The notes: a model not told the origin generated them from the sequence alone. Shown: positions 15,785-46,153, counted from the stretch's first letter. The stretch is 49,096 nucleotides of DNA from an uncultured Christensenella sp. (GCA_964509485.1 CAZDXW010000001.1:1-49096), one strand, 5' to 3'. Numbers and translations: made by a program.

Positions 15785-15854
15785 AAAAAACCTCCAGAAA
15801 CCGCGCGGTACCTGCACGGTCTCTGAAGGTAATGCCCGAAATCGGTAACAATCC
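15785..15854 (-). promoter_or_regulatory. RAT (ribonucleic antiterminator) overlapping an intrinsic terminator, leader of the EIIBC gene
   Basis: The minus-strand sequence GGATTGTTACCGATTTCGGGCATTACCT (15854-15827) matches the LicT/SacY RAT consensus. It overlaps the hairpin CCTTCAGAGACCG...CGGTTTCTGGAGG followed by TTTTTT. Confidence 0.8.
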
Positions 15855-15915
15855 TTCTGAATGAAATGAAATCTGAATAACGAAAGCTTTCTATTTCGCC
15901 CACCAACAGGAGCAG

Positions 15916-16764: not shown

Positions 16765-16800
16765 TTCGGCTCCCAATTTCGAATCGACCGGTATGGACGT

Positions 16801-30319: not shown

Positions 30320-30511
30320 TCATAAGCTCCGTTCAGTTTTTCTATCCTCCACAATCGGTCGACAATACTCTTCTTTCCATCGATAGTAGGTTGCTTTGCC
30401 GATTTCCGCCGCTTTGCAGGCTTCGTCAATCGTCATCCCCTGGTTGTATTTGAGCATCACCAAAGCGAGTTTTTCCAGAATCTGCTCGCGTGTGTAGCTT
30501 TTACGCGCCAT
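30320..30511 (-). CDS. Small HTH protein, IS3 OrfA-like (63 aa)
   Basis: 'MTIDEACKAAEIGKATYYRWKEEY' resembles the HTH of IS3-family OrfA (Transposase_8-like). No OrfB/DDE domain follows. Confidence 0.5.
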   Translation of the reverse strand: MARKSYTREQILEKLALVMLKYNQGMTIDEACKAAEIGKATYYRWKEEYCRPIVEDRKTERSL

Positions 30512-30599: not shown

Positions 30600-30827
30600 T
30601 TACGATCCGACGTGCCGCTCCTGCTGGGATTCGAGCTGAACTCCCGCACGCCGCCACTTGTAGTAGGTATGCACGGAAATGCCCGCCGCCTTGCAGCACT
30701 TATTCAGCGGCAATCCGCTCTTGTATAGGGCCTCGATGTGCAGCAGCTTTACCATTGCCCATTCGTACTCTCCGCTGTTTGGCGTCATAACATTCCCCTT
30801 TTTCTCGATCATTTGATCAAATCTCAT
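30600..30827 (-). CDS. Small HTH protein, paralogue of the previous one (75 aa)
   Basis: 'LPLNKCCKAAGISVHTYYKWRRAG'. Its ATG (30827-30825) overlaps the TGA of the NlpC/P60 gene as an ATGA. Confidence 0.5.
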   Translation of the reverse strand: MRFDQMIEKKGNVMTPNSGEYEWAMVKLLHIEALYKSGLPLNKCCKAAGISVHTYYKWRRAGVQLESQQERHVGS

Positions 30828-32812
30828 TCTTCAAACAGTACCGGTCTGCGAATATACCGAAATCCCGTGCTCCATGCCTCCGTTACGACGACCCCGTTCT
30901 TTCGCGACGAGCAGTGCGCAACAAGATAGCTGCCGTCGTCGTCCACCGAGACAATGATTCCAACGTGGTTAAACTGCTTTTCCCCCGGTACCGAGTAGAA
31001 GGCCAGATCGCCCGGTTTTCCCTCGTCCCAGCCGATCGCCGTGGAATGCGACCACTGGCTCGACGACCCGTTGCCAATCGCTTCCAGTACGCTCGTGTCT
31101 CCGGTCGCGTTGACGAACGTCCAACTGACGAACCCGCTGCAGTCCAGCCCGCCGGTGCGTTCCACGACGACGGATTCCCCGTCCTGTTCCGTGCGAACCG
31201 AGCAGGGCAGCCCCCATTGCTCGTTCCAGCCAAGCTTGTTGTACTTCCCCCCCCAGAGGTAGGTCACCTTGCCGACCAGCGAAAACGCGGTTTCGACCAC
31301 ATCCTTGCGCCGGACATCAAGATCGGCGGGAAGCGCGGCGCGGATCTGCTCGAGATCGGCATCCGTCGCGTCGAGAAACGCGGCGTTCCCGGTCAGCGAC
31401 GCGAACGTACGCTGAAACTCCGGCTGCATCAGCTCATATAGAAAGCTTTCGCGCTTGGCGTCCATGTCGTACTCGCCGGCCATCTCGTCGTACGATTTCG
31501 AATCCAGCATGACATTCGTCACGCCGTCCATGCGGATCACGCTGACCGGGTTCATGCGCCAGAACACCTCGTCCAACCCGTCCAGCGAAATCGATCGCAG
31601 CTGCATCAGGTCCAGCGGATGATCCACGTCCAGACTGCTTTCGGCGATAAACGTCGCCAGCACGTCGGACCAGTTCTTCACCGCCGCTTCCTGCACCGGC
31701 GAGAATTCCGCCGGTGCGACGCTCTCCGCGTCCGTGTCGTTCTCCGTGGCCGACTGCGCCATGATCCGTACGCCTGTTTCGCCCGCGGTCATCGACTGAA
31801 CTTTCTCGGCATACTGCTGCGTCAAATCCGCAATCTTCGCCGTCAGCGCGTCGCAGATTTCGTTGCGATACGCCAACAACACCTCATATCGTTCCGCACT
31901 GCTGCCCGTTGGTTCCGCAACGGTTCCATCCACATCCTCGTCGCTCTCGCCGGTAACGTGAACCACCCGCGTCACGGTGATCAGTTCGCCATCCTGCATC
32001 GCGCCATAGGTCACGCGGTAGTCCCCCGCGAGATCCGCACAAAAACCCCCGTCGTCCACCACCCAAACCGCTATCGGTTCGCCGGATTCCGTCTGCGCGC
32101 TCACGCCTTCCAGCAGCACAAAGGACGTGTCTCCGGCGGGAATCGACGTGTCCGCCGCCGTAATCGTGACCTTGCCGGTCGCGCTCGTCGGCACCGGAAC
32201 CGGCGTCGGCGTCGGCTCCGTTTCGTCCGGTGCCGCCTCGCCTTTCGCCAGCACAATCGTCCTGCCTGCATCCTCCGAAAGGTTCGCTACGCTTGCGCCG
32301 CCGCTCTCGCGATAACCGTCCTTCTCGGCGTTCGCGCGGTAATCATGCCCAGTCGGCAGCAGCCAGAAGACACTCCCCTCCGCTCCCGTCACTTCGGAGT
32401 AGAGAAACTCGCCATCCATATAAAGCTTCACGCGCGCGCCGGAAAGCGCATTCCCGTCCGCATCCTGAACCAGAATGGTCAGTCGAGCGTCCGCCGGAAT
32501 GGGCGTTGCCTCCGGGTCTTCCGCTGCATCCGTGCCGTCGGGCGTTACCGAAGGTTCCGCCGACTGCGTCGCTTCGGGTGTCGGCGTACTCTCCGCCGGA
32601 GGCTCGCTTTGTTCGGATTCCTCCACCACCGCACTCTCTTCCGGCACGGCAGTTGCTTCCGGTTCGCACACCGCGTCGGTATACAGTTCATCCTCCAGCG
32701 TGTAATCCAGCGCGTGAACCGCCGGTTCGGCACAGGCGGACAAGGCAAGAAGCAGCATGCCCGTCATCAGCAGCAACGCCAGTTTTCCGAATTGTCCTCG
32801 ATTTCGTTTCAT
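30824..32812 (-). CDS. Secreted lipoprotein with Ig-like modules and a C-terminal NlpC/P60 peptidoglycan endopeptidase domain
   Basis: Start at ATG 32812 (AGGAGG RBS) and lipobox LLALSAC. A carboxypeptidase-regulatory-like segment (RLTILVQDADGNALSGARVKLY) and an Ig-like segment (GDYRVTYGA...VTRVVHV) are present. The catalytic Cys lies in GGLDCSGFVSW and the His in FNHVGI. Confidence 0.8.
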   Translation of the reverse strand: MKRNRGQFGKLALLLMTGMLLLALSACAEPAVHALDYTLEDELYTDAVCEPEATAVPEESAVVEESEQSEPPAESTPTPEATQSAEPSVTPDGTDAAEDPEATPIPADARLTILVQDADGNALSGARVKLYMDGEFLYSEVTGAEGSVFWLLPTGHDYRANAEKDGYRESGGASVANLSEDAGRTIVLAKGEAAPDETEPTPTPVPVPTSATGKVTITAADTSIPAGDTSFVLLEGVSAQTESGEPIAVWVVDDGGFCADLAGDYRVTYGAMQDGELITVTRVVHVTGESDEDVDGTVAEPTGSSAERYEVLLAYRNEICDALTAKIADLTQQYAEKVQSMTAGETGVRIMAQSATENDTDAESVAPAEFSPVQEAAVKNWSDVLATFIAESSLDVDHPLDLMQLRSISLDGLDEVFWRMNPVSVIRMDGVTNVMLDSKSYDEMAGEYDMDAKRESFLYELMQPEFQRTFASLTGNAAFLDATDADLEQIRAALPADLDVRRKDVVETAFSLVGKVTYLWGGKYNKLGWNEQWGLPCSVRTEQDGESVVVERTGGLDCSGFVSWTFVNATGDTSVLEAIGNGSSSQWSHSTAIGWDEGKPGDLAFYSVPGEKQFNHVGIIVSVDDDGSYLVAHCSSRKNGVVVTEAWSTGFRYIRRPVLFEE

Positions 32813-32848
32813 GTCCGCTCCTCCTTTCCCACCTGTTCGGCTCATTCG

Positions 32849-33748
32849 TCAGCCCACCCCGCGAACGACCATTCGCACTTCGCCGCAGATTGCGCTCATT
32901 GGAATCTGCCCGATTCGGACGTCCCGGCTGTCGATCGACTTCGCGCGGTTGTCTCCCATCAGAAACACCATGTCGTCCTGCACGGTCACACTCTCCATGC
33001 CGCTGTTGTGCAAATCATCCGCCTGGATGTAAGGCTCGTCGGTCAGCACCAGATTTCGCACGACGGTGCCGTCCGCGTTGACCTGAATCACGTCGCCCGG
33101 CAGCCCGATTACCCGTTTGACCACCAGGCCGTATGCATCTCCCGTATCGAAGATCACGATATCGCCGTAGGTCACGTCTTGTACGCTCGTGTAGTAGAGC
33201 TTGTCGCCCTCCATGAGCGTCGGCTGCATTGAGGTTCCGGTGACCGCGTACTCCCGAACCACCAGCAGCGCGCCAATCACCGCGAGCAGCGCAAACGCTA
33301 CCACCGCAAGCAGCACAATCAGGGATCGCTTCGCGTGCGGGTTCGATTGCGCGCGCTCTATTTTCTGTGGACTTGCAGCTAAGCTCTGCGGCTTTGCCTC
33401 TGGTTTTCGTTTCGGCTGCGGCAATTGCGGCTGCTTCGTCTTCTTTTTCTTGTGTTGTTTCGCCGGTTTTACACCCGTTTTCGGTCTGTTCTGTCCGGAA
33501 CCCTGGCGCGCACGCTCAATCGGGAACCGCAGCGGTTCCTTCTGCTTCGGCTTCTCCGTTTGCTGCGGCTGCGTCGGAACAAGCGTCCACTGCGGACGTT
33601 CATACGAGAATTCCGGCATCGCCTCCGGCCGGCTGTTCGGGTTGCACTCGTTTTCGCTCCGTTGTCGGATATACGTGTTTGGAGAACGTTTGATTGTTTT
33701 TCGGACGGTCTTATAGGTCTGTGTATATCCGGAAATCCGATTTTCCAT
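32849..33748 (-). CDS. Signal peptidase I (S26), catalytically intact, with a long basic N-terminal extension
   Basis: Box B 'GTSMQPTL' (Ser), box D 'VVKRVIGLPGD' (Lys) and box E 'GDNRAKSIDSR' are present. The single TM segment is LIVLLAVVAFALLAVIGALLVV. It is preceded by about 140 Lys/Pro/Gln-rich residues. Confidence 0.85.
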   Translation of the reverse strand: MENRISGYTQTYKTVRKTIKRSPNTYIRQRSENECNPNSRPEAMPEFSYERPQWTLVPTQPQQTEKPKQKEPLRFPIERARQGSGQNRPKTGVKPAKQHKKKKTKQPQLPQPKRKPEAKPQSLAASPQKIERAQSNPHAKRSLIVLLAVVAFALLAVIGALLVVREYAVTGTSMQPTLMEGDKLYYTSVQDVTYGDIVIFDTGDAYGLVVKRVIGLPGDVIQVNADGTVVRNLVLTDEPYIQADDLHNSGMESVTVQDDMVFLMGDNRAKSIDSRDVRIGQIPMSAICGEVRMVVRGVG

Positions 33749-33754
33749 GCTTCC

Positions 33755-34615
33755 TTACTTCCGTTTCGCCAGAATTACAAATCGTCCGTCGTTCGTGTGG
33801 TATGCGCAGGTGGACAGCGTAATCAGATCGTCCCCATAGCGGACCGCTATGCCTGTGTCGTACAGCGCCGCGCCCCGAATCCCGTCGAGAAAATCCTGAA
33901 AATCCGCCTCGTCCGTTGCGTTGAGAAACGTATAGCACCTTAGCGTCTTTGCCGCTCGAAGATCGGTTTCCATCGCGGCGAATATTTCGTAGTCGCCTTC
34001 GTCGTAGAGCGTGCTGAAATGAATGATCGGGTGTTCGCGCCAGAAGTCCTTGTCCTTGTACTTCACGATTGTTGCGAACATGCTTCCGTTCTTCATGTGG
34101 TGGCCGTAGAGCACGATGTTGTCGCTGCGCGGCCAAATCGTACAACCTTCCCCGACAAACGGAACTCCGCTCATGGATTTCTTCTTTGAAAACGCAAGAT
34201 GGATGTACCGTTCCGGCTCGTCCGGCGTGAACATCACGGGATAGTCGAGGTCGGTGTCGTCAATCTTGATCCACCCGCCCAAGTCGCTGTTTTGCGCGTA
34301 CAGCTCTGTAAACCGGCTTAAGATTTGCGCGTTCTTTGGTTCCTCTGCCGTTGGCTCCGGGCTGGCGGAGGAAGCGACTGTTTCACCAAGCGTTTCGGGC
34401 ACGGGCGTTGCCTGCGTAGCAGGTTCCGCATTCGACGTGGCCGCCAGCAGCGCGATCTCGCGAAACGCGTCTGCCTCCGCCGCCCGTTCGCGGTAGTCCG
34501 CCAGCAGCGCCGCGCCAGCGACCGAGATCAGCAGCAACCCCGTCATAGCGAGCAGCAGCCGGCGCAGGAACCGCTCCGCCTTGCTTTTGCACGTTTCGCG
34601 TCCGTTTCGTTCCAT
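33755..34615 (-). CDS. Class B sortase (second copy)
   Basis: N-terminal TM only. 'GWIKIDDTDLDYPVMF', 'VLYGHHMKNGSMF', 'TLSTC' and 'RFVILAKR' supply the His, Cys and Arg triad in SrtB-type context. There is no class C lid and no C-terminal TM. Confidence 0.82.
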   Translation of the reverse strand: MERNGRETCKSKAERFLRRLLLAMTGLLLISVAGAALLADYRERAAEADAFREIALLAATSNAEPATQATPVPETLGETVASSASPEPTAEEPKNAQILSRFTELYAQNSDLGGWIKIDDTDLDYPVMFTPDEPERYIHLAFSKKKSMSGVPFVGEGCTIWPRSDNIVLYGHHMKNGSMFATIVKYKDKDFWREHPIIHFSTLYDEGDYEIFAAMETDLRAAKTLRCYTFLNATDEADFQDFLDGIRGAALYDTGIAVRYGDDLITLSTCAYHTNDGRFVILAKRK

Positions 34616-34640
34616 GCAGCCCCCGTGTTTTTCTCAAGCG

Positions 34641-35636
34641 TTACTTCTTGTTCTTCTTCCCCGGCAGGAACGCCGCCACCAGGCAAATCAATCCCAGCGC
34701 GATGAGAATCCACCAAAGGTAGGCCTTCGATTCGTCCCCCGTCTTTGGTCCGTCCGGCTTGTCGTAGGCGTTCGTAAACACCAGCCCCGTCTGCGCTGCT
34801 CCCGATGCGTTGGTGATTGTCCGCGTTGCGGAGAGCTTCCCGTTCGTTTCCGTCACCACGACCGTCATGTGGTAGACCGTTGAATCATAGGTGTATCCGC
34901 TTGCCGAACCAACTTTTTCGTACACGGTATAGGTGTAGGTTCCTGCTTGCGTATACGTAATGTTCCCGAAATCTCCGCTTCCCGCGCCTGTGACGTTGAC
35001 CGTTTTGATCCCGCTCACGCTTCCTTCCGGCATGGGGTACGACGCATTGTCCGCCTTCATGTAAAACGTAAATACGCTGTTTGACGATGGCGTGTCGCCG
35101 CTGATTCGCTTCTCCACCGGAGGGTCGACGATCACATAGTCCGAGAGCACCGTGTTCGTAAACAGTGCCCGTTCCTGTTTCTCCGTCTGCCCGTGCTTCA
35201 CGAGATACATCACCGCCTGCAGCGTTCCGCCCGCCTGATCCTTCCAGGTTACCTGCACGGTCAGATCGTATACGGTTGTGTCGTATACGTAGTCTCCGCT
35301 GGTCCCGGCGACTTCGGAAATGGTGTAAAGGTAGTCGCCAACCGCCGTATACGTAATCGTTCCAAACGTCGTGTTTCCCGTTCCCGCAATCGTGGTTGTC
35401 TTCACCCCGTTGACGCTTCCGGCGGGCATTGGCGCGTTGTTGAGGGCGCTCAAACGAAACGTGAACGTCTCCGTCGTCGCCGGTATGCCGGAAACCACCT
35501 TGTAAACGGGTATGCTCAGCGTTGCCGGGGTGTCCGCCAGCGCGAGATTTCCCGCGGGAACCAACAGCGTTATCGTAAGCAGTAGCAAGCCCGCCATGAC
35601 TTTCTGTAGCAATCGAATTCGGTTTATAGATTTCAT
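34641..35636 (-). CDS. Pilin subunit with two FctA/Spy0128-like isopeptide domains and a GPKTG sorting signal (candidate basal or minor pilin)
   Basis: Start at ATG 35636, which overlaps the upstream sortase TGA. It has a signal peptide. The repeated motifs are 'PVYKVV...GDYLYTISE...YDTTVYDLTVQV...FTN' and 'VEKRISG...GTYTYTVYE...YDSTVYHMTVVV...FTNAY'. The C-terminus is 'GPKTGDES', a TM helix, then KKNKK. Confidence 0.8.
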   Translation of the reverse strand: MKSINRIRLLQKVMAGLLLLTITLLVPAGNLALADTPATLSIPVYKVVSGIPATTETFTFRLSALNNAPMPAGSVNGVKTTTIAGTGNTTFGTITYTAVGDYLYTISEVAGTSGDYVYDTTVYDLTVQVTWKDQAGGTLQAVMYLVKHGQTEKQERALFTNTVLSDYVIVDPPVEKRISGDTPSSNSVFTFYMKADNASYPMPEGSVSGIKTVNVTGAGSGDFGNITYTQAGTYTYTVYEKVGSASGYTYDSTVYHMTVVVTETNGKLSATRTITNASGAAQTGLVFTNAYDKPDGPKTGDESKAYLWWILIALGLICLVAAFLPGKKNKK

Positions 35637-36385
35637 CACGGTTCGCCTCCGGCTTGTTCTGTTTCGGTCATTCTTGCGACGAGAATCATTCTTCCGTTCG
35701 TCGTTCCTTCCGCGCAGGTGGACAAGGCGACGATCCGGTCCCGATCCGTCAGATCCGCCCCGCGGCGGAACGTTGCATCCTGCTGAATGTGCTTTGCCAG
35801 CGCATTCCAGCCGTCTGCCTCCAGCGGCAGATTGAAGAGCGGAGACGTGTACGCGTCCACTTCGAGAAACGCAATCATCTCCAGTTGATAGGTCTTGCCC
35901 GGCAGATACAGCCAGCCGGTTTGATGTTCGTCGAAATAGGTCTTGTCCGCAAATTTCTCCAAGTCGCCGAACATCATCCCGCCAGCCATGTGGTGCCCAT
36001 AGATCAGCGAATACTGATCCGAAAAGTCCTTGCTGCAGCGGTAGTCCAGAAAGATGCTGCCGCCGAGCGAATAGTCCCCGTAGATATCCTGGTTGAGATA
36101 CTTTGTGTTGTCGTCTGCCCGCAACACGGGGTAGTCGATGTTTGTGTCGTCCACCGTGAGCCACGCGCAGACCTCCGCGTTGATTGCCTGTAGCTCCGAA
36201 AGGGAGGGATTGGAAACGTCCGGTTTGAAGTGCATGACCTCGCTGGACACGCCCGCCTTGTTCAGAACCGAGTACGAGTCCCAGAGCGCGTACCCTGCAT
36301 AAAACAGGATGACGAGCAGCACCAGAATCAATGCCAGGTTCAGCAGCCTGTCCAGGCCGCGGATTAACCGGTCCGCCGTTTCCAA
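35636..36385 (-). CDS. Class B sortase (pilin polymerase candidate)
   Basis: N-terminal TM. Motifs 'AWLTVDDTNIDYPVLRADDNTKYL', 'LIYGHHMAGGMMF', 'ALSTC' and 'RMILVAR'. Confidence 0.82.
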   Translation of the reverse strand: METADRLIRGLDRLLNLALILVLLVILFYAGYALWDSYSVLNKAGVSSEVMHFKPDVSNPSLSELQAINAEVCAWLTVDDTNIDYPVLRADDNTKYLNQDIYGDYSLGGSIFLDYRCSKDFSDQYSLIYGHHMAGGMMFGDLEKFADKTYFDEHQTGWLYLPGKTYQLEMIAFLEVDAYTSPLFNLPLEADGWNALAKHIQQDATFRRGADLTDRDRIVALSTCAEGTTNGRMILVARMTETEQAGGEP

Positions 36386-36414
36386 TTCCCTTCCCTCCCG
36401 ACTTCATTATTTGG

Positions 36415-37752
36415 TTACTTGCGTTTCCTGAGCAGGATCACGACCAGGAGGATCGCAACCACGCCGAGCAGCGCATAGGGCAGGATGTTGAGCAGCACGC
36501 CCGTCGGCGTCACAGACTCCTTGTTGTTCGTGAAGTTCTGCTCGTTGACCGCACCCGCGCCCGTGAAGATTGTCTGCTGGTTGGTCGTTTTATTGGTCGT
36601 TACCGCCGTCTTAACCGTCGTCAGCACCGCCGGGGTAGCCGTATTGCCGTGTTCAACGGTGATCGTCGTGCGGTAATCCGCCGTTCCGCTCTCTGTCGTC
36701 GTCACGCGCTCGCCCGACGGCAGGCCGATGATCTGGATGTACTGGCTGTGCGTCAGCGTGAACGTTCCGGAGTTCGAAATGGTTCCGGTTCCGCCCGCCA
36801 CCGCGGTGTCCGCCGCCGTGCCCGTTCCGCCGATTGCGTTGTCGCTGCCCATCTCATACTTCTGATAGGTATAGCTTGCCGTGTCGGCGGCTCCCGCCGG
36901 CGTGACCAGTCCAAGCGTAAACGAGAATGCCAGGTTCGGGTCCGCGATGTCACCGGTGACCAGTTTCGTAACCGTCAGGGCTGCCGTGTTGTAGTCGTTG
37001 ACAAACGGGTAGCTGATGTTGCGAACGGCTCCGTCCGTAGCCGGAGGCAGCACGATGCCGATTTTACCGACGTCCTCTTCGCCCGGGTTGTTCGTGATCG
37101 GTCCCAGATTGCCGTTGTCCGGCCCGGTCAGGGTCAGGTTGCTGGTGTTGGTGGTTTCCCACGCCGTAATCGCGCTGACGTTTACCACCGGGTTGCCGCT
37201 CGCATCCAGTAAGGGCGTGCCGTCGTCATTCAACACGTTGGTGACGTAAACGTTGATGTAGTAGACCGTTTCGTCATAGTCCACACCGGAGATCGGGGAT
37301 CCCGGAACGGTACCCAGCGTATCGGTCGTGCCGGGGATGCGCTCGGTGAGCCGATAGGTGTAAATACCCGCTTGCGTATAGGTGATGTTCCCCGTCGTGG
37401 TGGTCTGCGTCTGCGTCGTGCCCGTTGCCGTCGCCGAGAAACCGCTCACAGTGATGAGCTGCGCACCGGTCGTTCCGCCCGGCATTGGCAGGTTCGCCGC
37501 GGTATACGCAATCGACCCTGCGCTCGTTGGCCCCGCCGTATAGCCCACCGGCTCCAGCAAAAAGCCAAAGCTCGTGACCGCCGGAAAGACCCCTGCCGTC
37601 GTCGCCGTCAGCGTCTTGCCAACGGTGATGTTTGCGCTGTTGTTGTGGCTCGCCGGATCATCCGCCATGGATGTGGTGAACGGTGCCATCACCAGTGCCA
37701 GAGCGAGCAGCATCATCAGCGCTCTTCCAAGTTTTCCGTAGTTGCGTTTCAT
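36415..37752 (-). CDS. Backbone pilin candidate, two-domain FctA/Spy0128-like, VTPTG sorting signal
   Basis: Signal peptide. Domain 1 reads 'ITVGKTL...GIYTYRLTE...YDETVYYINVYV...YPFVNDY'. Domain 2 reads 'LTVTKLVTGD...FSFTL...QNFTNNK'. The C-terminus is 'VTPTG-VLLNILPYALLGVVAILLVVILL-RKRK'. Its position relative to the SipA-like gene and the sortase mirrors fctA. Confidence 0.8.
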   Translation of the reverse strand: MKRNYGKLGRALMMLLALALVMAPFTTSMADDPASHNNSANITVGKTLTATTAGVFPAVTSFGFLLEPVGYTAGPTSAGSIAYTAANLPMPGGTTGAQLITVSGFSATATGTTQTQTTTTGNITYTQAGIYTYRLTERIPGTTDTLGTVPGSPISGVDYDETVYYINVYVTNVLNDDGTPLLDASGNPVVNVSAITAWETTNTSNLTLTGPDNGNLGPITNNPGEEDVGKIGIVLPPATDGAVRNISYPFVNDYNTAALTVTKLVTGDIADPNLAFSFTLGLVTPAGAADTASYTYQKYEMGSDNAIGGTGTAADTAVAGGTGTISNSGTFTLTHSQYIQIIGLPSGERVTTTESGTADYRTTITVEHGNTATPAVLTTVKTAVTTNKTTNQQTIFTGAGAVNEQNFTNNKESVTPTGVLLNILPYALLGVVAILLVVILLRKRK

Positions 37753-37849
37753 TGATTACCTCCATTTGTATTTTGTTTGTTTTTGTTATTGATAAAGCAG
37801 TCCTCAGCTTGCTTTTATAACCGTTGATCCAACCCGCGCCTGCGTTTGT

Positions 37850-38428
37850 TTATAGCCCGCGGTTTCGCAGCAGTGAAATCACTTTCCCTTTGATATCCCC
37901 TTTCGCAACCGGGCCAAAATCCCGGCTGTCCTGCGCGTACTCGCGGTTGTCCCCGAGGATGAACACCTCGTTTCCCGCGAGTGTAACCGGTAGAACGGTT
38001 GCCCGCCCTTCGGCGCTTGTCGCGGAAAACACCTCTTCCTGCTGAACGCTGCCGTTGACAATCAGCTGTCCATCCGCGTTGAGATCCACCGTGTCTCCGC
38101 CCATTGCGACAATGCGCCCGTAATACAGAACTCCGTTCTTTGCGTAGGCAACAACGTCGCTGACGTTTTGCTCCGCTTCCAGCCGGTAAAAAATCACCAT
38201 GTCTCCGTCCCGCAGGCGAGGATACATTCCCTCGCCGTTTACAATTCCGACTCCAAAGAGGAAGGAGAGCGCCAGATATCCGCATATCGCAATTGCGGCA
38301 ATCTTCTCCGCCAGTGCCCATGCACTGTGCCGGATCTCCAACCTTCGCCTGCGCGTCTGGAAAATCTGTACAACGCGTTCTTTATCGTCGACCTTGTGTT
38401 TCCCGCTCATTCTACTCGTTTGTTCCAT
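37850..38428 (-). CDS. SipA/LepA-like signal-peptidase-I homologue lacking the catalytic Ser and Lys (pilus assembly chaperone candidate)
   Basis: It has the S26 fold boxes, but box B reads 'GEGMYPRL' (Gly where Ser is expected). Box D reads 'YGRIVAMGGD' (Gly where Lys is expected). Box E 'GDNREYAQDSRDFGPV' is retained. Start taken at ATG 38428 (MEQTSRM). The alternative at 38461 overlaps the upstream gene by 32 nt. Confidence 0.8.
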   Translation of the reverse strand: MEQTSRMSGKHKVDDKERVVQIFQTRRRRLEIRHSAWALAEKIAAIAICGYLALSFLFGVGIVNGEGMYPRLRDGDMVIFYRLEAEQNVSDVVAYAKNGVLYYGRIVAMGGDTVDLNADGQLIVNGSVQQEEVFSATSAEGRATVLPVTLAGNEVFILGDNREYAQDSRDFGPVAKGDIKGKVISLLRNRGL

Positions 38429-38429
38429 C

Positions 38430-38897
38430 TCACTTGCCCGAGGCGCTCTTTCCTCCGCCATACAGCTTCAAGATTTGGTTGGCCGAGAATGCCTGCGCGG
38501 AAGCGGTCTCATCTTCGCGGCTCTGCCCAAACTGTCGCTGTTTCTGCTTTCGCGTTTGCGTCTCACTCGGAACAAGCGCCGCCGTCTGCTCTTGCCGCTC
38601 CTGAACTCTCATTGGTTCCTTCTGCATGGCCTCTTTCAGCTGATTCCACTCGTCCCGCATCCGCTTCACTTCCTCGTCGTTCTCGCGGATCATGTCCTGC
38701 AGCTGCAACGCGTAGTTGCGCCATTCGCCAACCGCCCCCTGCGAGTTTTGGTGCTGAACATCCAGCAGCTCGTCGTATTCCCCATGCAGTTTCTCGAATA
38801 CCCGCCAGACGTCCTCTTCGTCCACTCCGCCGATGATCCGATTCCGAAATTTTACGGAGTTCAAGTATCTCTCCAGTTGTTTGTAACTCTTTGCCAT
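38430..38897 (-). CDS. Coiled-coil protein with a DivIVA-like N-terminal motif
   Basis: 155 aa with no signal peptide. 'VKFRNRIIGGVDEEDVWRVFEKL' resembles the DivIVA/GpsB N-terminal 'F..GFRGYD..EVD.FL' motif. Heptad-rich Glu/Gln/Arg sequence follows. Confidence 0.55.
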   Translation of the reverse strand: MAKSYKQLERYLNSVKFRNRIIGGVDEEDVWRVFEKLHGEYDELLDVQHQNSQGAVGEWRNYALQLQDMIRENDEEVKRMRDEWNQLKEAMQKEPMRVQERQEQTAALVPSETQTRKQKQRQFGQSREDETASAQAFSANQILKLYGGGKSASGK

Positions 38898-38920
38898 TCC
38901 AATTCATCCCAATTCCTATT

Positions 38921-41900
38921 TCAGATTCTCTTCGCGTTTCGTTGCCTGCTTTGCTTTTTACGGTGCGCCAGAGAGAGCGACAACGTCAGCACTCCGCCGG
39001 CCAGAAGGATCATCAGAGCATATGGATAGATGTGCAGCAGAATCCCCGTTGGTACGGTGCCAATCAACGTGTTTGTAAACAGCAGATTGACGTCGCCTAG
39101 AACGGTGCTTCCCGCTCCGGCATTGCCAACTGCGGTAAAGCTGCCACCATTCGTCTCCGTGATCTCCAGTTGATACCCACTGAAGATCAGGATTTCGGAG
39201 ATCACATAGGAGGATCCAACCGGAACTTTGTCGATCGTGATGCTTTGTCCGTGCTTGAGCGGAATGATCGCAAACCCGCTCAGGATCGTTCCGTCCGCCG
39301 GAGCTTCCACGCCTGCAATGGTGGATGCGCCGGTGTAGGCCAGCGACGCTCCTGCGTCGTTGAGCACGATTCGGAAGTTGAACTCCTCCTTCGGATCGGC
39401 CAGATTGCCCTTCACGATCTTGGAGATCGTGATCGACTTGGTGCCGACGCGATGGTATGTTTCGTTTGTCAAAAGCGAATCCGTTCCCGTCGTCACGTTC
39501 GCGCTGTTCACATAGAATGTTTCGAGTGCCCCCGCGGTCACCATCTCAATGGTCACCTGAAACGCAAACTGGTGCTGCTCGCTGGTTACGGGAGCGTCCT
39601 CCCAGAAGACCGTGGTGACGCCGGTCGCCGTATCCGTTGACCAGGTCATTCCCGGCGTATAGGTTCCGCTGTCCTTGACCAGCGTTAACCCCGCCGGAAG
39701 TACATCCGTAATATCAACCGTTCCAATGTTCGCAAGCGCATAGGCGTCATTCCAATCGAGGTCGATTGAATAGGTAATCGTGTCGTTGATTGCCGCTTCC
39801 ACCGGTGCTGTTGGCGTTCCGTTGTTGATACTCCCCGCGTTTAGCCTTGCGTTTTTACTCGCTGACAACAGCACACCGTATCCGAAGTCCATGTTATCGA
39901 CGGACGCGGTTATCCCTGTCAAGGTTACGCCGCTCACGATGGCCCGGGTCCCCGTCTCTTCCGCGTCGTTATCGGTAGAGGCCGTCTTCAGCGTTATCTG
40001 CAATCCGTCCGGCGTGGTCATCACGATTTGGTAAGACCCCTGCGGGATTCCGTTCAGGTTGTATTCGCCGGCCGCATTGGTCGCCGCAATGAGAGGCGAA
40101 CCGTAGATTCCGTTGACCGGCGTCGTATACGTGGTATCCCCGGCGGCATAGAGTCCAACCGTCATGCCGGGAAGCCTGCTCTCGGCGGCGTCGATCATGC
40201 CGTTCCAGTTCGTATCCGCCCAAACCCGCCCGTTGACCGAACGAATGATGGCAAAGCCGATGTCCTGGTTGTTTACTGCCGTCGCCGTCGTGAGATCAAT
40301 CCCGCTGATCACGGCGTTTGCGCTCTCTGCCAATGCGTCGTTGTCGGTCGAAACCGTCTTTAACGTTACAATATGATTGTCCGGCGTGAGCGCAACCACT
40401 TTGTACGTGCCATATGGAATCTGAGCGAAGCTGTACGCGCCGTTTGCATCCGTCGTGGTTGTCAGCGGTGTACCGTTCAGGTTGTTCGCAGGCGTTGTAT
40501 AGGTTGTGCTCGTGCTTGGATACACGCCGACCGTAAGCCCGGATACGCGGGGTTCGCCGGTTTCCAGCATGCCGTCCCAATCGATATCCGTCCAGACGGT
40601 ACCGCTGATCGAGTGGCTGATCGTAAAGCCGAAATCTTTATGCACATAGGACGTCGCAGTCGTTAAATCAATGGAGTTGATAACAGCCCGTGTGCCGGAC
40701 GGTACGGCGTCGTTGTCATTCGCCAGCACCGTGACGACGTATCCGTTTGGTGTTGTCGTAACCACTTTGTATGTACCATACGGAATGGAGGATAATGTGT
40801 ATCCACCCGTCGAAGTGGTTGTTGTCGTCAGCGCGACCCCATATATATTGGTAACCGGGGTTGTATAGGTCGTATCCGTGCTGGCGTACAGACCCACCGT
40901 TAAGCCGGAGAGCAGCGTCTCGCCGCCTGTTCCGCTCATGCCGTCCATGGTTCCGTTTGCGTTAGCATCCAGCCAGGCGTTGCCGGTTACTCTTCGATCC
41001 GGCGCAAAGCCGAAGTCCATGTTACTAGCAGACGTTGCAGTGGTCAGCCCAACGTTGCTAATCAAAGCCCGTGTACCGGAGGGACTTGCATCATTATCAT
41101 TCGCCAATCTTGTTACGATATACCCGCTTGGCGTCGTAATTACGACCTTATAGGTTCCGTAAGGGATCAGCGAGAAGCTGTAGGTTCCGGTCGCACTCGT
41201 TGTCGTCGTCAACGATTGGCCATATAGATTCGTCAGAGGAGTGGAATAGGTGTTATCCGTATTTGCGTAGATTCCAACCGTCAAACCAGAGATTCTGCTC
41301 TCTCCTGTGTCGATTGTGCCGTCCGTGTCCGTGTCATACCAGACGCGGCCGGCAATCGTGCGATTTGAAGTAAGCCCGAAATCGATGTTTGTCACAGCCG
41401 GAGTTGTGGTCGAAACCGAAACATTTCCCGTCCGCGCAATCGTCTGTGGGGAAAGCATGGTCGGCGACGCATCGTTGTCATTCACCAACCGAGTCATCAC
41501 ATAACCGCCCGGTATGGAAATCTGAAGGATATATACGGTAGCATCAATAGACGAGAACGAATAATCGCCAGATGCATTTGTAACCGCAGTTGCGATTGGG
41601 TTGGTAAAGAAATAGTCGTCGTTCCGGTAGGCTGTTACCGTGATTCCGGGCATTCTGGTTTCGCTGGTGTCGATTGTTCCGTCGGAATCCGCATCGTTCC
41701 AGATTCTGCCGCTGATCGATCCACCGACAATCGTAAAGCGGTTCACATAGGACGTTTCGTCCCCCGAATTAACCGTCCGCCCGGTCACGCTGGAGTAGCT
41801 CGTGAAATCGCTTGCATTGTATCCTTCGTAGTTGCGGTCGTTATAGGTAACGCTCGCCTGATTCTTTACGACCATTCCAACGGGACCCGTTACGCGAGCC

Positions 41901-43000
41901 TGATACGAAATGGTGTGGGTCATACCTTCGCCGTAAGCAAGGTTAATGCCAATGGTGTTTCGGGAGCCCCACGTCACGCCGCCGTTCGTATTGGACGTGC
42001 CCGCGGTTGCCCCGTCGCCAAAGTTGACGCGTAGTTCGTCCGTCGTGCTGTTAAACGTCGCAAGGCTTCCCGCTTGATAACCGTCAATCGTTACGCTGCC
42101 GGAGACGAAGTCGAGTCCGTCGCTCAGGATGTCCCGAAACACACAGCGGGATGCATCGGACTCACCCCAGTTCGTAATGTTGACTGTGACGGTAACAACC
42201 TGGCCTCGCCATGCGGTTGTGCTGCCAGACTGCAGCGTTGTGATGCTTTTTTTTGCAATCAGTTTAGAGCCGGTCTGAAACGCAACGTCGTCTAGGAAGT
42301 TACCGTTCTGTACGTTTCCAGTCCAGGAAGAAACGGCTGCAAAGTCAAATTCTGTACTGGTTTGGCCTGCTGGCACTGTATATGCGCCGCGGTAGTAGTA
42401 CCATTGGGTTCCGTTGTTGTTTGCCGTTTGGATTAGCTGCGAACCGGAAGGCGCGGTCGTTGGTGAACCGGAAGGCCGCAGATAGAAGTTCATTTGATCG
42501 TATTTTGTCGAACTGTTCCCAATCGCCCGATGGGCGAACTGCCAATATACTCTGGAACTAGGTGTAGTAGAAACAACCTGATACAAACGCCCTGGAAAGA
42601 GGCAATTCAGCTCAGCATACTGATTTCCATCCGCCTGCGTTGTAGCGAAGGTATATGGAACACCGGAATTCCCAGTCGGATCGACAACTTGCAACTCGAT
42701 TAAGTAAGCATTTGGATTCGTACCATAAGCCGCATAGTCGACAGGGCAGGTTGACCAGCTCGCCATTTGAGCAATCGTATAGCCGTCAAATCGAGCGCCG
42801 TCACTGGCACGAACGCGGGTAACCGTTGGAGATTGGAAACTACCGTTAAGAAAATTAATCGGCAGCGGCTTCGTTTCGTTGGGCACATAGTAAACCTGTG
42901 TCCCGGCCTGTGCCGACTTCACAGGGAGCAACAATGCCAACGCTCCAATCACCAAGGCGACACCAATAAAAGACAGAGCTCTATTCTTACGTTTCTTCAT
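38921..43000 (-). CDS. Large sortase-anchored tip-adhesin candidate (1359 aa)
   Basis: Start at ATG 43000 (MKKRKNRALSFIGVALVIGALALLLPVKSAQA). The inferred architecture, N- to C-terminal, is as follows. First an N-terminal jelly-roll/lectin-like domain (NGSFQSP...GNFLDDVAF). Then a DUF11-like domain and five SdrD-B/CnaB-like repeats. Then a second DUF11-like domain and a SpaA/FctA-type isopeptide domain (ITISKIVKGN...FNFRIVL...LLFTNT). The sorting signal is 'TVPTG-ILLHIYPYALMILLAGGVL-...HRKK'. Confidence 0.85.
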   Translation of the reverse strand: MKKRKNRALSFIGVALVIGALALLLPVKSAQAGTQVYYVPNETKPLPINFLNGSFQSPTVTRVRASDGARFDGYTIAQMASWSTCPVDYAAYGTNPNAYLIELQVVDPTGNSGVPYTFATTQADGNQYAELNCLFPGRLYQVVSTTPSSRVYWQFAHRAIGNSSTKYDQMNFYLRPSGSPTTAPSGSQLIQTANNNGTQWYYYRGAYTVPAGQTSTEFDFAAVSSWTGNVQNGNFLDDVAFQTGSKLIAKKSITTLQSGSTTAWRGQVVTVTVNITNWGESDASRCVFRDILSDGLDFVSGSVTIDGYQAGSLATFNSTTDELRVNFGDGATAGTSNTNGGVTWGSRNTIGINLAYGEGMTHTISYQARVTGPVGMVVKNQASVTYNDRNYEGYNASDFTSYSSVTGRTVNSGDETSYVNRFTIVGGSISGRIWNDADSDGTIDTSETRMPGITVTAYRNDDYFFTNPIATAVTNASGDYSFSSIDATVYILQISIPGGYVMTRLVNDNDASPTMLSPQTIARTGNVSVSTTTPAVTNIDFGLTSNRTIAGRVWYDTDTDGTIDTGESRISGLTVGIYANTDNTYSTPLTNLYGQSLTTTTSATGTYSFSLIPYGTYKVVITTPSGYIVTRLANDNDASPSGTRALISNVGLTTATSASNMDFGFAPDRRVTGNAWLDANANGTMDGMSGTGGETLLSGLTVGLYASTDTTYTTPVTNIYGVALTTTTTSTGGYTLSSIPYGTYKVVTTTPNGYVVTVLANDNDAVPSGTRAVINSIDLTTATSYVHKDFGFTISHSISGTVWTDIDWDGMLETGEPRVSGLTVGVYPSTSTTYTTPANNLNGTPLTTTTDANGAYSFAQIPYGTYKVVALTPDNHIVTLKTVSTDNDALAESANAVISGIDLTTATAVNNQDIGFAIIRSVNGRVWADTNWNGMIDAAESRLPGMTVGLYAAGDTTYTTPVNGIYGSPLIAATNAAGEYNLNGIPQGSYQIVMTTPDGLQITLKTASTDNDAEETGTRAIVSGVTLTGITASVDNMDFGYGVLLSASKNARLNAGSINNGTPTAPVEAAINDTITYSIDLDWNDAYALANIGTVDITDVLPAGLTLVKDSGTYTPGMTWSTDTATGVTTVFWEDAPVTSEQHQFAFQVTIEMVTAGALETFYVNSANVTTGTDSLLTNETYHRVGTKSITISKIVKGNLADPKEEFNFRIVLNDAGASLAYTGASTIAGVEAPADGTILSGFAIIPLKHGQSITIDKVPVGSSYVISEILIFSGYQLEITETNGGSFTAVGNAGAGSTVLGDVNLLFTNTLIGTVPTGILLHIYPYALMILLAGGVLTLSLSLAHRKKQSRQRNAKRI
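39878..41719 (-). repeat. Five tandem repeats of about 120 codons each (SdrD B-repeat / CnaB-like) inside the adhesin gene
   Basis: Each unit starts with the (I/V)xG(R/T/N)(I/V/A)W.D...(D/N)G pattern: ISGRIWNDADSDGTID, IAGRVWYDTDTDGTID, VTGNAWLDANANGTMD, ISGTVWTDIDWDGMLE, VNGRVWADTNWNGMID. Each ends in (D/M)(F/I)GF. Units 2-4 share IPYGTYKVV. Confidence 0.85.
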
Positions 43001-43016
43001 ACATCCGTTCCTTACC

Positions 43017-44327
43017 TTAGTCGATGACTTGTATAGCGTTACTGTCGCCTTCTTCGCCCGGCGTACTGTTCGTCTTTGCCGTTTGCGACGCATCCTTCAG
43101 AACGACGATTTCCGCGGTTACCCGCCCTCCGCCGCCAAATCCATCCTCGACATGCATACTCAATTTGTAAGTGCCCGCCGAATCCGTATCGTACCTCCCA
43201 CTCCATGAGATGGGGATGTTCCGGTAACCGCCGTCTCGCATGAACGCGCCCGTTTGGCTTGGCAGATGTACGCTTTCGCCTTCCAGAACAACAAAGCGCA
43301 TCAGAAGTCCGTCCTCGGATATGCCACAGAAACTTTGAATCTCGTTGCAGTCCGCAATGCGTACGCTTGCCGTCACCGGTTCGCCCGCGTAGGTATAGGC
43401 GGTGGAGGGAGTGCTCACCTCTGGCGTTTGCACCGGTTCTTCCGTTTGATCGGGCACAGGGCTCTCTTCGATTTGCTCCGTCGTCTCCACCGTCTCGGAG
43501 GAGGGATTCAGTATCGACGCCGTGAACACCCAGGGGCCATAGCCATACCGGCTCTCGATTGCATAAATCGTCTCATTCTCGTAGAGCTCGTTTGCTTCGT
43601 CCGCAACGCTGGCCCAAGTAACCGGAACCTCAATCGGTACCCCGTTGCCGTTGATTGCGGTAAGCGTCGCAGGCAGCGGGATATTCTCCTCCGAAGTGCC
43701 GCGCTCCACGAAGATTTCGATCGGTTCGTTCACAAAGGAAGTAATCACAGAATCGAGCGCGGGATCGGGCGTCGGGGTGATCTCCGGCGAAGCGCTTCCA
43801 TCCGGCGTTAAGCTCGGTTCCGGCGTTTCGGAAGCATCCGGCGTAGCGAAAGGCTCCGCTTCCTCTGCCGCCTGCACCTCAACCTCAATAGTTGGCAGCG
43901 TTCCTTCGTATATGTATCCCGGCTGAAGTACCGCGGCGAAGAGGTATGTGCCAATGGAATCCGGCGTATAATCCTCGCTCACCCAGGCAACGGGCACGTC
44001 GCGCAGTTCCAGTATCTCGGTCGGCGCTTCGCTTTGCTCCGCATCCTGCGAAGGTTCCTGAGGAATCACAACGCTTGCGGGGAGCGTATCCGGCAGCCCG
44101 ATTTCTTCCGCCGCTGTTCCAAGCGGCACAACCAGCTTTGCTGTGCGCTCCTCGGAAAACGAAGCGATAGCGACTTCTCCGTCCGCCAGAGCGCGTACTG
44201 TTTTCGTGCCGCAGGCGGTAGCAAAGAGGCAAAGCACCAGCAGCATGCAGGTGAATATCCGTGCCCTGCTTAACCCGGTATGCGTCGTACCCATGTTTCT
44301 TTGGCTCTCGCCTGATTTCTGATTCAA
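43017..44327 (-). CDS. Lipoprotein with three Big_4-like Ig modules; first gene of the pilus operon
   Basis: TTG start at 44327, placed 7 nt after AGGAGG. An alternative ATG lies at 44294. Lipobox LFATAC. Three 'V(P)V.W....Y...S.GTY' modules are present (VPVAWVSEDYTPDSIGTYLF, VPVTWASVADE, IPISWSGRYDTDSAGTYKL), separated by Pro/Glu/Thr linkers. Confidence 0.7.
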   Translation of the reverse strand: MNQKSGESQRNMGTTHTGLSRARIFTCMLLVLCLFATACGTKTVRALADGEVAIASFSEERTAKLVVPLGTAAEEIGLPDTLPASVVIPQEPSQDAEQSEAPTEILELRDVPVAWVSEDYTPDSIGTYLFAAVLQPGYIYEGTLPTIEVEVQAAEEAEPFATPDASETPEPSLTPDGSASPEITPTPDPALDSVITSFVNEPIEIFVERGTSEENIPLPATLTAINGNGVPIEVPVTWASVADEANELYENETIYAIESRYGYGPWVFTASILNPSSETVETTEQIEESPVPDQTEEPVQTPEVSTPSTAYTYAGEPVTASVRIADCNEIQSFCGISEDGLLMRFVVLEGESVHLPSQTGAFMRDGGYRNIPISWSGRYDTDSAGTYKLSMHVEDGFGGGGRVTAEIVVLKDASQTAKTNSTPGEEGDSNAIQVID

Positions 44328-44560: not shown

Positions 44561-44583
44561 CACAATGTACGGAAATACAGTTT
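44561..44583 (-). promoter_or_regulatory. Conserved box, copy A (upstream of the pilus operon)
   Basis: The plus-strand sequence CACAATGTACGGAAATACAGTTT is nearly identical to copy B at 45398-45420. It lies directly after the terminator of the second response-regulator gene. Confidence 0.45.
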
Positions 44584-44590
44584 GGACATA

Positions 44591-44628
44591 AAATTAAGTA
44601 CAGTTCAGCGAACTAAACTGTACTTAAA
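44591..44628 (-). terminator. Intrinsic terminator after response regulator 2
   Basis: Hairpin AAGTACAGTT...AACTGTACTT followed by a T-run on the minus strand. Confidence 0.65.
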
Positions 44629-44656: not shown

Positions 44657-45328
44657 CTACTTCCTGTCCTCCATCCATCCCATCTTCGCTGCGTACGCGA
44701 TTACTTGTGACTTGTTCTCCATTTGCAGTTGCTCCATGATCGAAGCCATGTGATATTTTACGGTTCGTTCGGTGATTCCAAGAAGATCGCCCGTTTCTTT
44801 ATAGGTCGTTCCTTTTGCTACCGCTTCCAGTACTTCCATTTGTCGTTCAGTGAGCCCGCTGCCGATGTGTGTGTTCGCCCCCGAGAGGAACACACGATTT
44901 TTCAGATCGCTGCTACTGATCTCCCGGAGCAGCCGCGCCGCCAGCCTGGGCGAGAGCGGAGCGCCTCCGTTTTCCAAGTCCAACAGCATATCAACCAGCT
45001 CCGCTCCGTTCATGCTCTTGAGCAGATAGCCGGATGCGCCCAGTTTAATTGCCTGGAACAAATCTTCGTCGTCCTCGGACGTGGTCAGCATAATGATTTT
45101 TATCCCCGGCATCCGCCCCTTGATCTGACGGAGGGCTTCAATCCCGTCGCATTCCGGCATGCGGACATCCATTAAAATAATATCCGGTGTAAGCGTTTCG
45201 GCTTTCTGCACCGCTTCCCTTCCGTTGCAAGCCACACCGACAACCTCTACGCCATAGGTTCCCAATAAAAACTGCAAACTGTCGGTAAACAGTTTATGAT
45301 CGTCTGCCAGCAGTATTCTCGGCGCCAT
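44657..45328 (-). CDS. NarL/LuxR-family response regulator (copy 2)
   Basis: Start at ATG 45328 (MAPRILLADDHKLF). Receiver domain (DIILMDVRMP, IIMLTTS, GASGYLLK) followed by a LuxR HTH (LTERQMEVLEAVAKGTTYKETGDLLGITERTVKYHM). Confidence 0.88.
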   Translation of the reverse strand: MAPRILLADDHKLFTDSLQFLLGTYGVEVVGVACNGREAVQKAETLTPDIILMDVRMPECDGIEALRQIKGRMPGIKIIMLTTSEDDEDLFQAIKLGASGYLLKSMNGAELVDMLLDLENGGAPLSPRLAARLLREISSSDLKNRVFLSGANTHIGSGLTERQMEVLEAVAKGTTYKETGDLLGITERTVKYHMASIMEQLQMENKSQVIAYAAKMGWMEDRK

Positions 45329-45397
45329 GTCCCATCCCTCGTTTCCCAATTCCTTTTACATCGTTCCCCCTTTATTTAACACTGATTGTAACTATTT

Positions 45398-45430: not shown

Positions 45431-45465
45431 AAAAAGTACAGTCGGCTTCTTTCGACTGTACTTTT
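45431..45465. terminator. Intrinsic terminator after response regulator 1
   Basis: AAAAGTACAGTCG-GCTTCTT-TCGACTGTACTTTT, with A and T runs on the two sides. Confidence 0.7.
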
Positions 45466-45487
45466 CAAAAACTGTACTCTGAGTTCT

Positions 45488-46153
45488 CTATTTTTGATGG
45501 ATCCATCCCATCTTCGTCGCGTAGGCGATCGCCTGCGCTTTGTTTTCTGTTTGGAGTATCTCCATAATGGTCGCCATATGATACTTCACGGTTCGTTCGG
45601 TGATGTGCAGCTGGCTACCAACCTCCTTATAGGTCGCGCCTCGAGCCACCGCTTCCAGCACCTCAATCTGACGTTGTGTCAACGGGTCATCATTTGCTGC
45701 ATCCACCTGCGCAACAACGGCGTTTGTCGGCTCTCCACCACGGCGAAACTCATTGAGCAGACGCGTTGCCAGCTTCGGCGCGAGCGGAGCGCCGCCTTTC
45801 TCGATATTGAGCAGCATTTCGACCAGTTCATTCCCGTTCATGCTTTTCAGCAGATAACCGGACGCCCCCAGCTTGATTGCCTGAAACAGGTTCTCGTCTT
45901 CATCGGACGTGGTCAGCATGACCACCTTGACGTCCGGCATCTTGCTCTTGATTCGCTTCAGTGTCTGAATTCCATTGCTCCCCGGCATCATAATGTCCAT
46001 CAGAATCACGTTTGGCTTCAGTTCTTCGGCTTTTTGCAGTGCTTCAAACCCGTTTTCCGCTACACCGAGAACCTCGATCCCATAGGTTCCCAACAGAAAC
46101 TTCAAACTATCGGTAAACAGCTTATGGTCATCGACAAGAAGTATTTTTAACAT
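45488..46153 (-). CDS. NarL/LuxR-family response regulator (copy 1, cognate position after the kinase)
   Basis: MLKILLVDDHKLF..., receiver domain plus LuxR HTH. It is a paralogue of copy 2, sharing long identical runs (LFQAIKLGASGYLLKSMNG, TERTVKYHMA). Confidence 0.9.
   Translation of the reverse strand: MLKILLVDDHKLFTDSLKFLLGTYGIEVLGVAENGFEALQKAEELKPNVILMDIMMPGSNGIQTLKRIKSKMPDVKVVMLTTSDEDENLFQAIKLGASGYLLKSMNGNELVEMLLNIEKGGAPLAPKLATRLLNEFRRGGEPTNAVVAQVDAANDDPLTQRQIEVLEAVARGATYKEVGSQLHITERTVKYHMATIMEILQTENKAQAIAYATKMGWIHQK

Follow-up and report, generated by a model that had tools for sequence, protein, structure and literature searches.

A likely SipA/class B sortase pilus locus with a clade-specific accessory gene layer in an uncultured Christensenella

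We describe a gene cluster carried on a 49,096-nucleotide stretch of DNA from an uncultured Christensenella sp. (GCA_964509485.1, CAZDXW010000001.1:1-49096; this whole stretch is called the window below). The cluster is a tightly packed block of 11 open reading frames (ORFs), which an earlier reading of the same DNA (the original prediction) took to be an FCT-like sortase-B pilus operon expanded with accessory genes. From comparisons of sequences and predicted structures, we consider it likely that the block encodes a three-component, sortase-assembled pilus of the SipA/class B sortase type, the type of the S. pyogenes FCT-2/3/4 loci, S. pneumoniae PI-2 and the C. perfringens VR-10B pilus, together with a clade-specific accessory layer. 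The pilus core is ordinary; the novelty of the locus is its conserved accessory layer, and above all a family of small proteins coupled to SipA. The positions of the genes and of the regulatory features upstream of them are given in Table 1. The tight minus-strand packing described in the original prediction is real, and Pfam and NCBIfam searches bear out its gene list for every product except two: a small protein labelled DivIVA-like, for which the family match is sub-threshold, and a small helix-turn-helix (HTH) protein, which is derived from a transposase. The computed intergenic distances span -32 to +97 nt over the block, and the several ATGA overlaps that had been claimed reduce to a single true one, between the NlpC/P60 and HTH genes.

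Table 1. Features of the putative pilus locus and its upstream region, in the direction of transcription. Distances are to the next gene of the block; negative values are overlaps.
Feature	Position	Strand	Evidence or remark	Distance (nt)
Sensor histidine kinase (7TM, PAS, HisKA_3, HATPase)	46166..47848	-	Pfam	
LuxR/NarL-type response regulator 1	45488..46153	-	Pfam; then 14-bp-stem terminator, 45466-45431	
LuxR/NarL-type response regulator 2, paralogue of regulator 1	44657..45349	-	Pfam; then 15-bp-stem terminator, 44627-44594	
23-nt conserved element AAACTGTATTTCCGTACATTGTG	44561..44583	-	In 329-nt leader of the putative pilus operon, beside a weak -35 / extended -10	
Block of 11 ORFs	30600-44327	-	Tightly packed; all on minus strand	
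Lipoprotein with Big_4 Ig-like domain, first operon gene	43017..44327	-	Pfam Big_4, 46 bits	16
Tip adhesin, 1359 aa, TVPTG sorting signal	38921..43000	-	Five SdrD_B, DUF11, C-terminal DUF7601	23
Small cytoplasmic protein, 155 aa	38430..38897	-	Conserved N-terminal module of ~45 residues, then long helix	-32; +19 with the 186-aa start of an independent gene call
SipA/LepA-type catalytically dead S26 peptidase homologue, 203 aa	37850..38461	-	Motif loss; PDB match to SipA	97
Backbone pilin, 445 aa, two Ig-like domains, VTPTG sorting signal	36415..37752	-	DUF7601; AF2 model	29
SrtB1, class B sortase, pilin-polymerase type	35636..36385	-	TIGR03064; PDB	-1 (GTGATG), 1-nt overlap
Basal pilin, 331 aa, GPKTGD sorting signal	34641..35636	-	Two FctA isopeptide domains	25
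SrtB2, probable second class B sortase, cell-wall-anchoring type, 286 aa	33755..34615	-	PDB ranking	6
Active-type signal peptidase I (S26A), 299 aa	32849..33748	-	TIGR02227	3
Lipoprotein, 673 aa, Ig-like domains and C-terminal NlpC/P60-CHAP peptidoglycan endopeptidase domain	30824..32845	-	Pfam	-4 (ATGA)
IS3-type transposase HTH fragment	30600..30827	-	HTH_Tnp_1 match; tandem paralogue at 30320-30511	

The five core genes encode the tip adhesin, the SipA-like protein, the backbone pilin, the sortase SrtB1 and the basal pilin. Their predicted colinearity with cpa-sipA-fctA-srtC-fctB of S. pyogenes was confirmed and extends to homology, the SipA-like protein corresponding to the SipA of structure 4N31, SrtB1 to SrtG1 and Spy0129, the backbone pilin to Spy0128 and PitB, and the basal pilin to FctB. 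Both catalytic residues of the S26 peptidases are lost from the SipA-like protein, the serine being replaced by glycine in GEGMYPRL and the lysine by glycine in YGRIVA, and these replacements are common to a family of ~190-aa proteins. A PDB search ranks S. pyogenes SipA/LepA (4N31, E 3.7e-23) as its nearest solved relative, with an alignment that runs through the last residue, and true signal peptidases match at only ~1e-7. SrtB1 scores 181 bits against TIGR03064, above the cut-off of 153.75, and its catalytic His, Cys and Arg can be read from the sequence. The two nearest solved structures, SrtG1 (4Y4Q, E 1.4e-46) and Spy0129 (3PSQ, E 5.5e-45), are both pilin-polymerising enzymes, and the third-best match is 16 orders of magnitude weaker.

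An AlphaFold 2 (AF2) model of the backbone pilin, built with 30 homologues, has a predicted local distance difference test (pLDDT) score of 86. A Foldseek search of the PDB ranks Spy0128, other T-antigens and PitB as its top 25 matches, with E values from 8e-19 to 6e-15; the Spy0128 match itself has an E value of 2e-18 and a template modelling (TM) score of 0.61-0.67 on the target. The register of the T-antigen alignment places two predicted isopeptide triads at K46/E137/N252 and K263/E354/N409, and all six of these residues are invariant or at least 90% conserved among the 30 homologues. N252 and K263 lie 11 residues apart, the same distance that separates the corresponding Asn and Lys of the T-antigen alignment, a pair that we take to be N168-K179 of Spy0128. 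The basal pilin matches Pfam FctA at 4e-40 and TIGR03786 twice, and its PDB matches are FctB (3KLQ and 8K6T, ~3e-10) and the N-domain of a T-antigen. Because the backbone pilin has Spy0128 and PitB as fold matches and conserved triads, and the basal pilin matches FctB, the view that both pilins are built of isopeptide-type immunoglobulin (Ig)-like domains holds at the level of models. The sorting signals, read from the sequence, are TVPTG for the adhesin, VTPTG for the backbone pilin and GPKTG for the basal pilin; the TIGR03065 match is sub-threshold (17.4 against 21.35). The same two classes of signal recur over 27 related loci, the tip and shaft proteins carrying x(V/T/M/P)PTG with a conserved hydrophobic segment and the FctA-type basal pilins carrying xPKTGD. 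In one distant locus that holds only the core genes (L002), two identical backbone-pilin genes (1874-3226 and 10611-11963) flank those for the sortase, basal pilin, adhesin and SipA.

These pilins lack the canonical YPKN pilin motif, and a linking lysine cannot be assigned to them by homology, as would be expected if the proteins were individually wall-anchored adhesins that form no polymer and if the two sortases of the locus anchored different substrates. We regard this alternative as very unlikely: YPKN is also missing from FCT-type pilins (PMC7900414), SipA is reported solely as a pilus-assembly factor (PMC7900414), shaft pilins are the best fold matches of the backbone pilin, and SrtB1 groups with the pilin polymerases. 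The nearly invariant K230 of the backbone pilin is a candidate for the linking lysine. As for the tip adhesin, its N-terminal ~230 residues (about 30-260; window positions 42200-42900) have no sequence match in Pfam or the PDB, and a thioester domain of the Cpa type was not detected in the protein. Judged by eye, this N-terminal region resembles a jelly-roll, lectin-like module.

The conservation of the locus was examined in SipA-like neighbourhoods gathered from metagenome contigs and from a scan of genomes, one per species, for which the query alignment consisted of SipA-like sequences only. The genome scan returned 21 loci, mostly in metagenome-assembled genomes (MAGs) of Clostridia, the closest being in a Christensenella sp. 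MAG at 74% SipA identity. By tblastn and blastp the full set is colinear in three related loci, L001 (63% SipA identity), L004 (53%) and L008 (62%), in the order Big_4 lipoprotein, adhesin, small protein, SipA, pilin, SrtB1, basal pilin, SrtB2, active S26 peptidase and NlpC/P60-CHAP protein; two others, L007 (74%) and L010 (59%), match the set until their contigs end. The accessory genes are thus linked with the sortase/pilin core in relatives at 53-74% SipA identity, as would be expected from the original prediction. Since the more distant loci, at 34-52% SipA identity, hold only the core, we take the extended gene set to be specific to this clade. Adhesion structures are essentially unstudied in the organisms that carry the locus, which are Christensenella-like and other uncultured gut Clostridia.

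The most distinctive member of the accessory layer is the small protein encoded next to SipA. Alignments of its family show a conserved N-terminal module (MAKS..EI...L....F+.+.fGGVDExDVW...E.L..EY) followed by a coiled coil that varies in length, and in an AF2 model of the window protein residues 5-14 form a helix, which a loop (15-26) connects to a long helix (27-93). When 1.84 billion representatives were searched exhaustively with a profile, 204 proteins fell into the family at E <=1e-3; the matches listed are mostly of 50-130 aa, with similarity confined to the N-terminal module. We examined the gene in 16 contexts, comprising 10 survey loci and 6 picked across the range of E values down to 3e-4. 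In 15 of them it immediately precedes a SipA-like gene, and in the 16th the two are fused; where the gene is separate, it usually overlaps the SipA-like gene. In the fusion, P0189, a dead SipA-like domain (GEGMYPRM, FARVVA) is attached to the N-terminal module. P0189 was assembled independently from two sequencing runs (L029 809-1513 and L030 598-1302), and is flanked by an adhesin-like ORF and a pilin-like ORF.

The name DivIVA-like, which the original prediction gave to this protein, is not established. In the Pfam and NCBIfam scan the window protein has a marginal match to DUF6115 only, and against Pfam DivIVA (PF05103) it gives no match at E <=10. Among 83 relatives, 36 match Pfam DivIVA, in every case below the curated threshold (best E 5e-5; one listed example scores 18.3 bits against a cut-off of 28 bits), and no other family recurs. 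A PDB profile search with the family recovered generic coiled coils only, with no DivIVA and no GpsB, and a Foldseek search with the model of the small protein returned no match. With hhalign, lFGGVDExDVW..L..eY aligns with SFRGYDEDEVNEFL..V..DY in the DivIVA of B. subtilis (E 0.0018, probability 15%); the comparison of the family with GpsB, at E 0.052, is not meaningful.

We tentatively suggest, as a possibility that is far from secure, that this small protein with a DivIVA-like N-terminus is a dedicated cytoplasmic partner of SipA that tethers the SipA/sortase assembly site to the membrane or positions it there, and that together with the active S26 peptidase and the NlpC/P60 lipoprotein it forms a spatially organised assembly station. 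If this were true, it would give a first handle on the role of SipA and on the positioning of sortase-built pili. The occurrence of the family beside or fused to SipA in all 16 contexts is in any case a testable lead on whether a positioning or scaffolding signal reaches SipA from the cytoplasm. No literature on the family was found in searches on Christensenella pili, DUF6115 and DivIVA with sortase pili.

The second sortase, SrtB2, appears to be of a different kind from SrtB1, with which it shares 31% identity. All 15 of its PDB matches are class B sortases, the best being SrtB of B. anthracis, Listeria and C. difficile and the worst those of the pilus type, and orthologues are present in L001, L004, L007, L008 and L010. 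The simplest reading of the two sortases and the two signal classes is that SrtB1 would polymerise the pilins and SrtB2 would anchor the fibre. The signal of the basal pilin does not covary with the presence of SrtB2 in the 27 loci; since loci without SrtB2 carry xPKTG basal pilins, as do loci with it, the enzyme is not strictly required for this signal, and a sortase from another part of the genome can evidently do the work.

The remaining accessory products are envelope proteins. Orthologues of the Big_4 lipoprotein occupy the same position in L001, L004, L007, L008 and partly L009; PDB sequence searches with this protein and with the NlpC/P60 lipoprotein gave no matches. The original prediction described an intact signal peptidase I with a basic tail. 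The enzyme is indeed intact, scoring 103.9 bits against TIGR02227 (cut-off 47) with its SMQP and VKRVIG motifs in place, and the Ser/Lys dyad is kept in all four orthologues. The tail is likewise real, being a basic cytoplasmic extension of ~145 residues rich in lysine, proline and glutamine; it is N-terminal, however, and occurs only in the window copy, the orthologues of L001, L004 and L008 lacking it. The lipoprotein encoded after it scores above the cut-offs for both NLPC_P60 (30.8 against 23) and CHAP (33.8 against 26) and has the Cys of DCSGF and the His of HVGI; in L001, L004 and L008 an orthologue likewise comes after the S26 gene.

These genes might have no part in a pilus. The core could be real while the Big_4 lipoprotein, SrtB2, the active S26 peptidase and the NlpC/P60 protein are general envelope genes that travel with the island, as is suggested by their absence from most of the SipA-type loci surveyed, by the xPKTG basal pilins found without a local SrtB2 and by the similarity of the NlpC/P60 domain to generic hydrolases. 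We consider this unlikely: the order and tight spacing of the accessory genes are strictly kept over loci with 53-74% SipA identity and different flanks, and no strong internal terminator was found in the block. A further alternative takes the locus for the remnant of a conjugative element, in which the adhesin, a sortase, a TraF-like peptidase and the NlpC/P60 hydrolase would function in the formation of mating pairs. Weak TraF matches of the S26 proteins agree with this, as do the presence of insertion sequence (IS) fragments, a shift in GC content, and the nearest plasmid relatives of the NlpC/P60 domain, which are SLT or NlpC hydrolases encoded on plasmids of clostridia and Paenibacillus, the best matches being on clostridial plasmids. 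The TraF matches, however, lie far below their cut-offs, and the genes that flank the locus are those for sugar transport, a ROK regulator and a two-component system. Because those window ORFs that were scanned against Pfam include no gene for a type IV secretion system (T4SS) or relaxase (no coupling protein, VirB4-type ATPase, relaxase or integrase), we rejected this explanation, which we hold to be extremely improbable.

Returning to the interpretation of the locus as a sortase-assembled pilus with its own accessory layer, we propose the following model. The adhesin and the backbone pilin would be secreted and held at the membrane through their sorting signals. SrtB1, aided by the inactive SipA, would cleave after the Thr of these signals and join adhesin to pilin, and pilin to pilin, via a pilin lysine. 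Growth would end on incorporation of the FctB-like basal pilin, and the anchoring-type SrtB2 would then act on the GPKTGD signal of this subunit and link the fibre to peptidoglycan. The accessory set would be co-transcribed with the core, the dedicated signal peptidase I maturing the pilin precursors, the NlpC/P60-CHAP lipoprotein opening or remodelling the peptidoglycan locally, and the small protein working with the part of SipA that lies in the cytoplasm or membrane, for instance by positioning or scaffolding it.

Several points weigh against this model and the reading on which it is built. The entire case is inferred from sequence. In the alignments the linking lysine of the backbone pilin does not lie at the position of K161 of Spy0128. 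SrtB2 scores 144 bits against TIGR03064, just below the cut-off of 153.75, and with xPKTG basal pilins also present in loci that lack this enzyme, a housekeeping sortase could serve in its place. The parts assigned to the Big_4, S26 and NlpC/P60 proteins are drawn solely from their linkage to the core. The kinship of the small protein with DivIVA fails at the Pfam threshold, in the PDB profile search and in Foldseek, and has the hhalign values given above. Finally, a gene that closes the locus in relatives has been lost here, and the window copy may therefore be altered. This gene, which encodes an EAL-type cyclic di-GMP (c-di-GMP) phosphodiesterase, is found at the end of the locus in L001 (17436-18251), L004 (18672-19490) and L008 (16468-17259), with ~55% mutual identity. 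In the window its position is occupied by two HTH_Tnp_1 fragments, and for this reason we regard the small HTH gene, which had been counted as a member of the operon, as an IS remnant; the HTH fragment is absent from all of the related loci. No remnant of an EAL gene was found in the window, and the arrangement suggests that the gene was lost through IS activity.

The relation of the locus to known pili can be judged against three systems. The first is the VR-10B pilus of C. perfringens, which is encoded by cnaA, fimA and fimB together with a signal-peptidase gene and srtB1, and is accompanied by a two-component system and, close by, srtB2; its pili have been visualised by immunogold electron microscopy, and necrotic enteritis has been shown to depend on them (PMC8088525). 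VR-10B is thus an earlier example of a clostridial SipA/SrtB pilus with a second sortase and a two-component system linked to it, and none of these features is new; the FCT-like SrtB pilus core can thus not stand as the undescribed feature it was first thought to be. The likeness extends to the three pilins, the signal-peptidase gene and a sortase-B-type signal on the basal pilin (PMC8088525). Compared by description, the seven ORFs of VR-10B differ from the window in that a DivIVA-like gene, a second peptidase, a peptidoglycan hydrolase and a Big_4 lipoprotein are missing, and the srtB2 of VR-10B is divergently oriented and adjoins the operon from outside, whereas SrtB2 here is encoded within. 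Of the five extra genes first held to be foreign to FCT loci, the second sortase therefore has a precedent in VR-10B, and for the other accessories we found no prior description. In particular, we found no description in the literature of a sortase-pilus operon with its own active signal peptidase and peptidoglycan endopeptidase. The presence of these two genes would point to a requirement, in some gut Clostridia, for dedicated maturation of the precursors and local remodelling of the wall when pili are made.

As in the S. pyogenes FCT-2/3/4 loci, the five core genes of the window stand in the same order and encode a dead chaperone of the S26 family in which Lys is replaced by Gly, a polymerase sortase of class B, and a backbone pilin of two domains, each with a Lys-Asn isopeptide triad (predicted here); the tip and shaft signals are likewise of the xVPTG type and differ from that of the basal pilin. 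The basal pilin of the window has two FctA domains and GPKTG, in contrast to the LPxTG or LPLAG of the S. pyogenes loci, and its anchoring is presumably carried out by a locus-encoded SrtB instead of the housekeeping SrtA. The adhesin carries SdrD_B repeats, with no thioester domain like that of Cpa detected, and the small protein, the active signal peptidase and the NlpC/P60 and Big_4 lipoproteins are extra. Regulation differs too, being assigned here to a two-component system and in S. pyogenes to RofA/Nra (PMC7900414). According to a review, the pili of S. pneumoniae PI-2 and S. agalactiae PI-2b likewise depend on signal peptidase I homologues for their assembly (PMC7900414).

The third system is S. 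pneumoniae PI-2 (pitA-sipA-pitB-srtG1-srtG2), which likewise combines SipA with a class B sortase and contributes the closest solved relative of SrtB1, in SrtG1, and a top fold match of the backbone pilin, in PitB. The PI-2 islet also has two sortase genes; those of the window share only 31% identity and come from separate SrtB subgroups. PI-2 is not known to have a basal pilin or any of the accessory genes. A fibre operon with its own active signal peptidase is represented by tapA-sipW-tasA of B. subtilis, the logic of which is the same as that seen here. SipW, however, is a peptidase of the endoplasmic reticulum (ER) type, TasA fibres are not built by sortases, and there is no homology beyond the S26 clan.

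Upstream of the block, a sensor kinase and two LuxR-type response regulators, which the original prediction did not mention, belong to the locus. Ahead of the pilus genes, the kinase is conserved in L001 (47% identity) and in L007 (67%), and both regulators are conserved in the same two loci at 70-79% identity. The leader of the block contains a short element, AAACTGTATTTCCGTACATTGTG, that is nearly invariant, with an invariant core, in the window, L007 and L001, where the proteins are only 45-80% identical. Its half-site, ACTGTAC, also builds the stems of the terminators of both response-regulator genes (45431-45466 and 44594-44627), and since it recurs there we consider the element a candidate operator for the LuxR-type regulators. 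No strong terminator was found inside 30600-44327, and strong ones follow each of the two regulator genes. With the block free of strong internal terminators and two strong hairpins immediately upstream, a single long operon beginning at the Big_4 gene is plausible; its expression would probably start from a promoter in the leader and be controlled by the adjacent kinase and regulators.

The GC content of the pilus block (31000-44000) is 55-63%, against ~48-51% in the adjoining sugar-transport and regulator genes, and the downstream neighbours of the window differ from those of L001. Both observations are consistent with an island that was gained or rearranged horizontally. The original prediction had described the genome as bearing T-boxes and a phosphotransferase system (PTS). 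The T-box is unconfirmed, since an Rfam scan at gathering thresholds of the whole 49-kb window and of the operon leader found no RNA family, including no T-box and no riboswitch for c-di-GMP or any other ligand. The PTS is present in the window, with genes for EI (10056-11681), EIIBC (14300-15991) and a PRD antiterminator (15916-16776).

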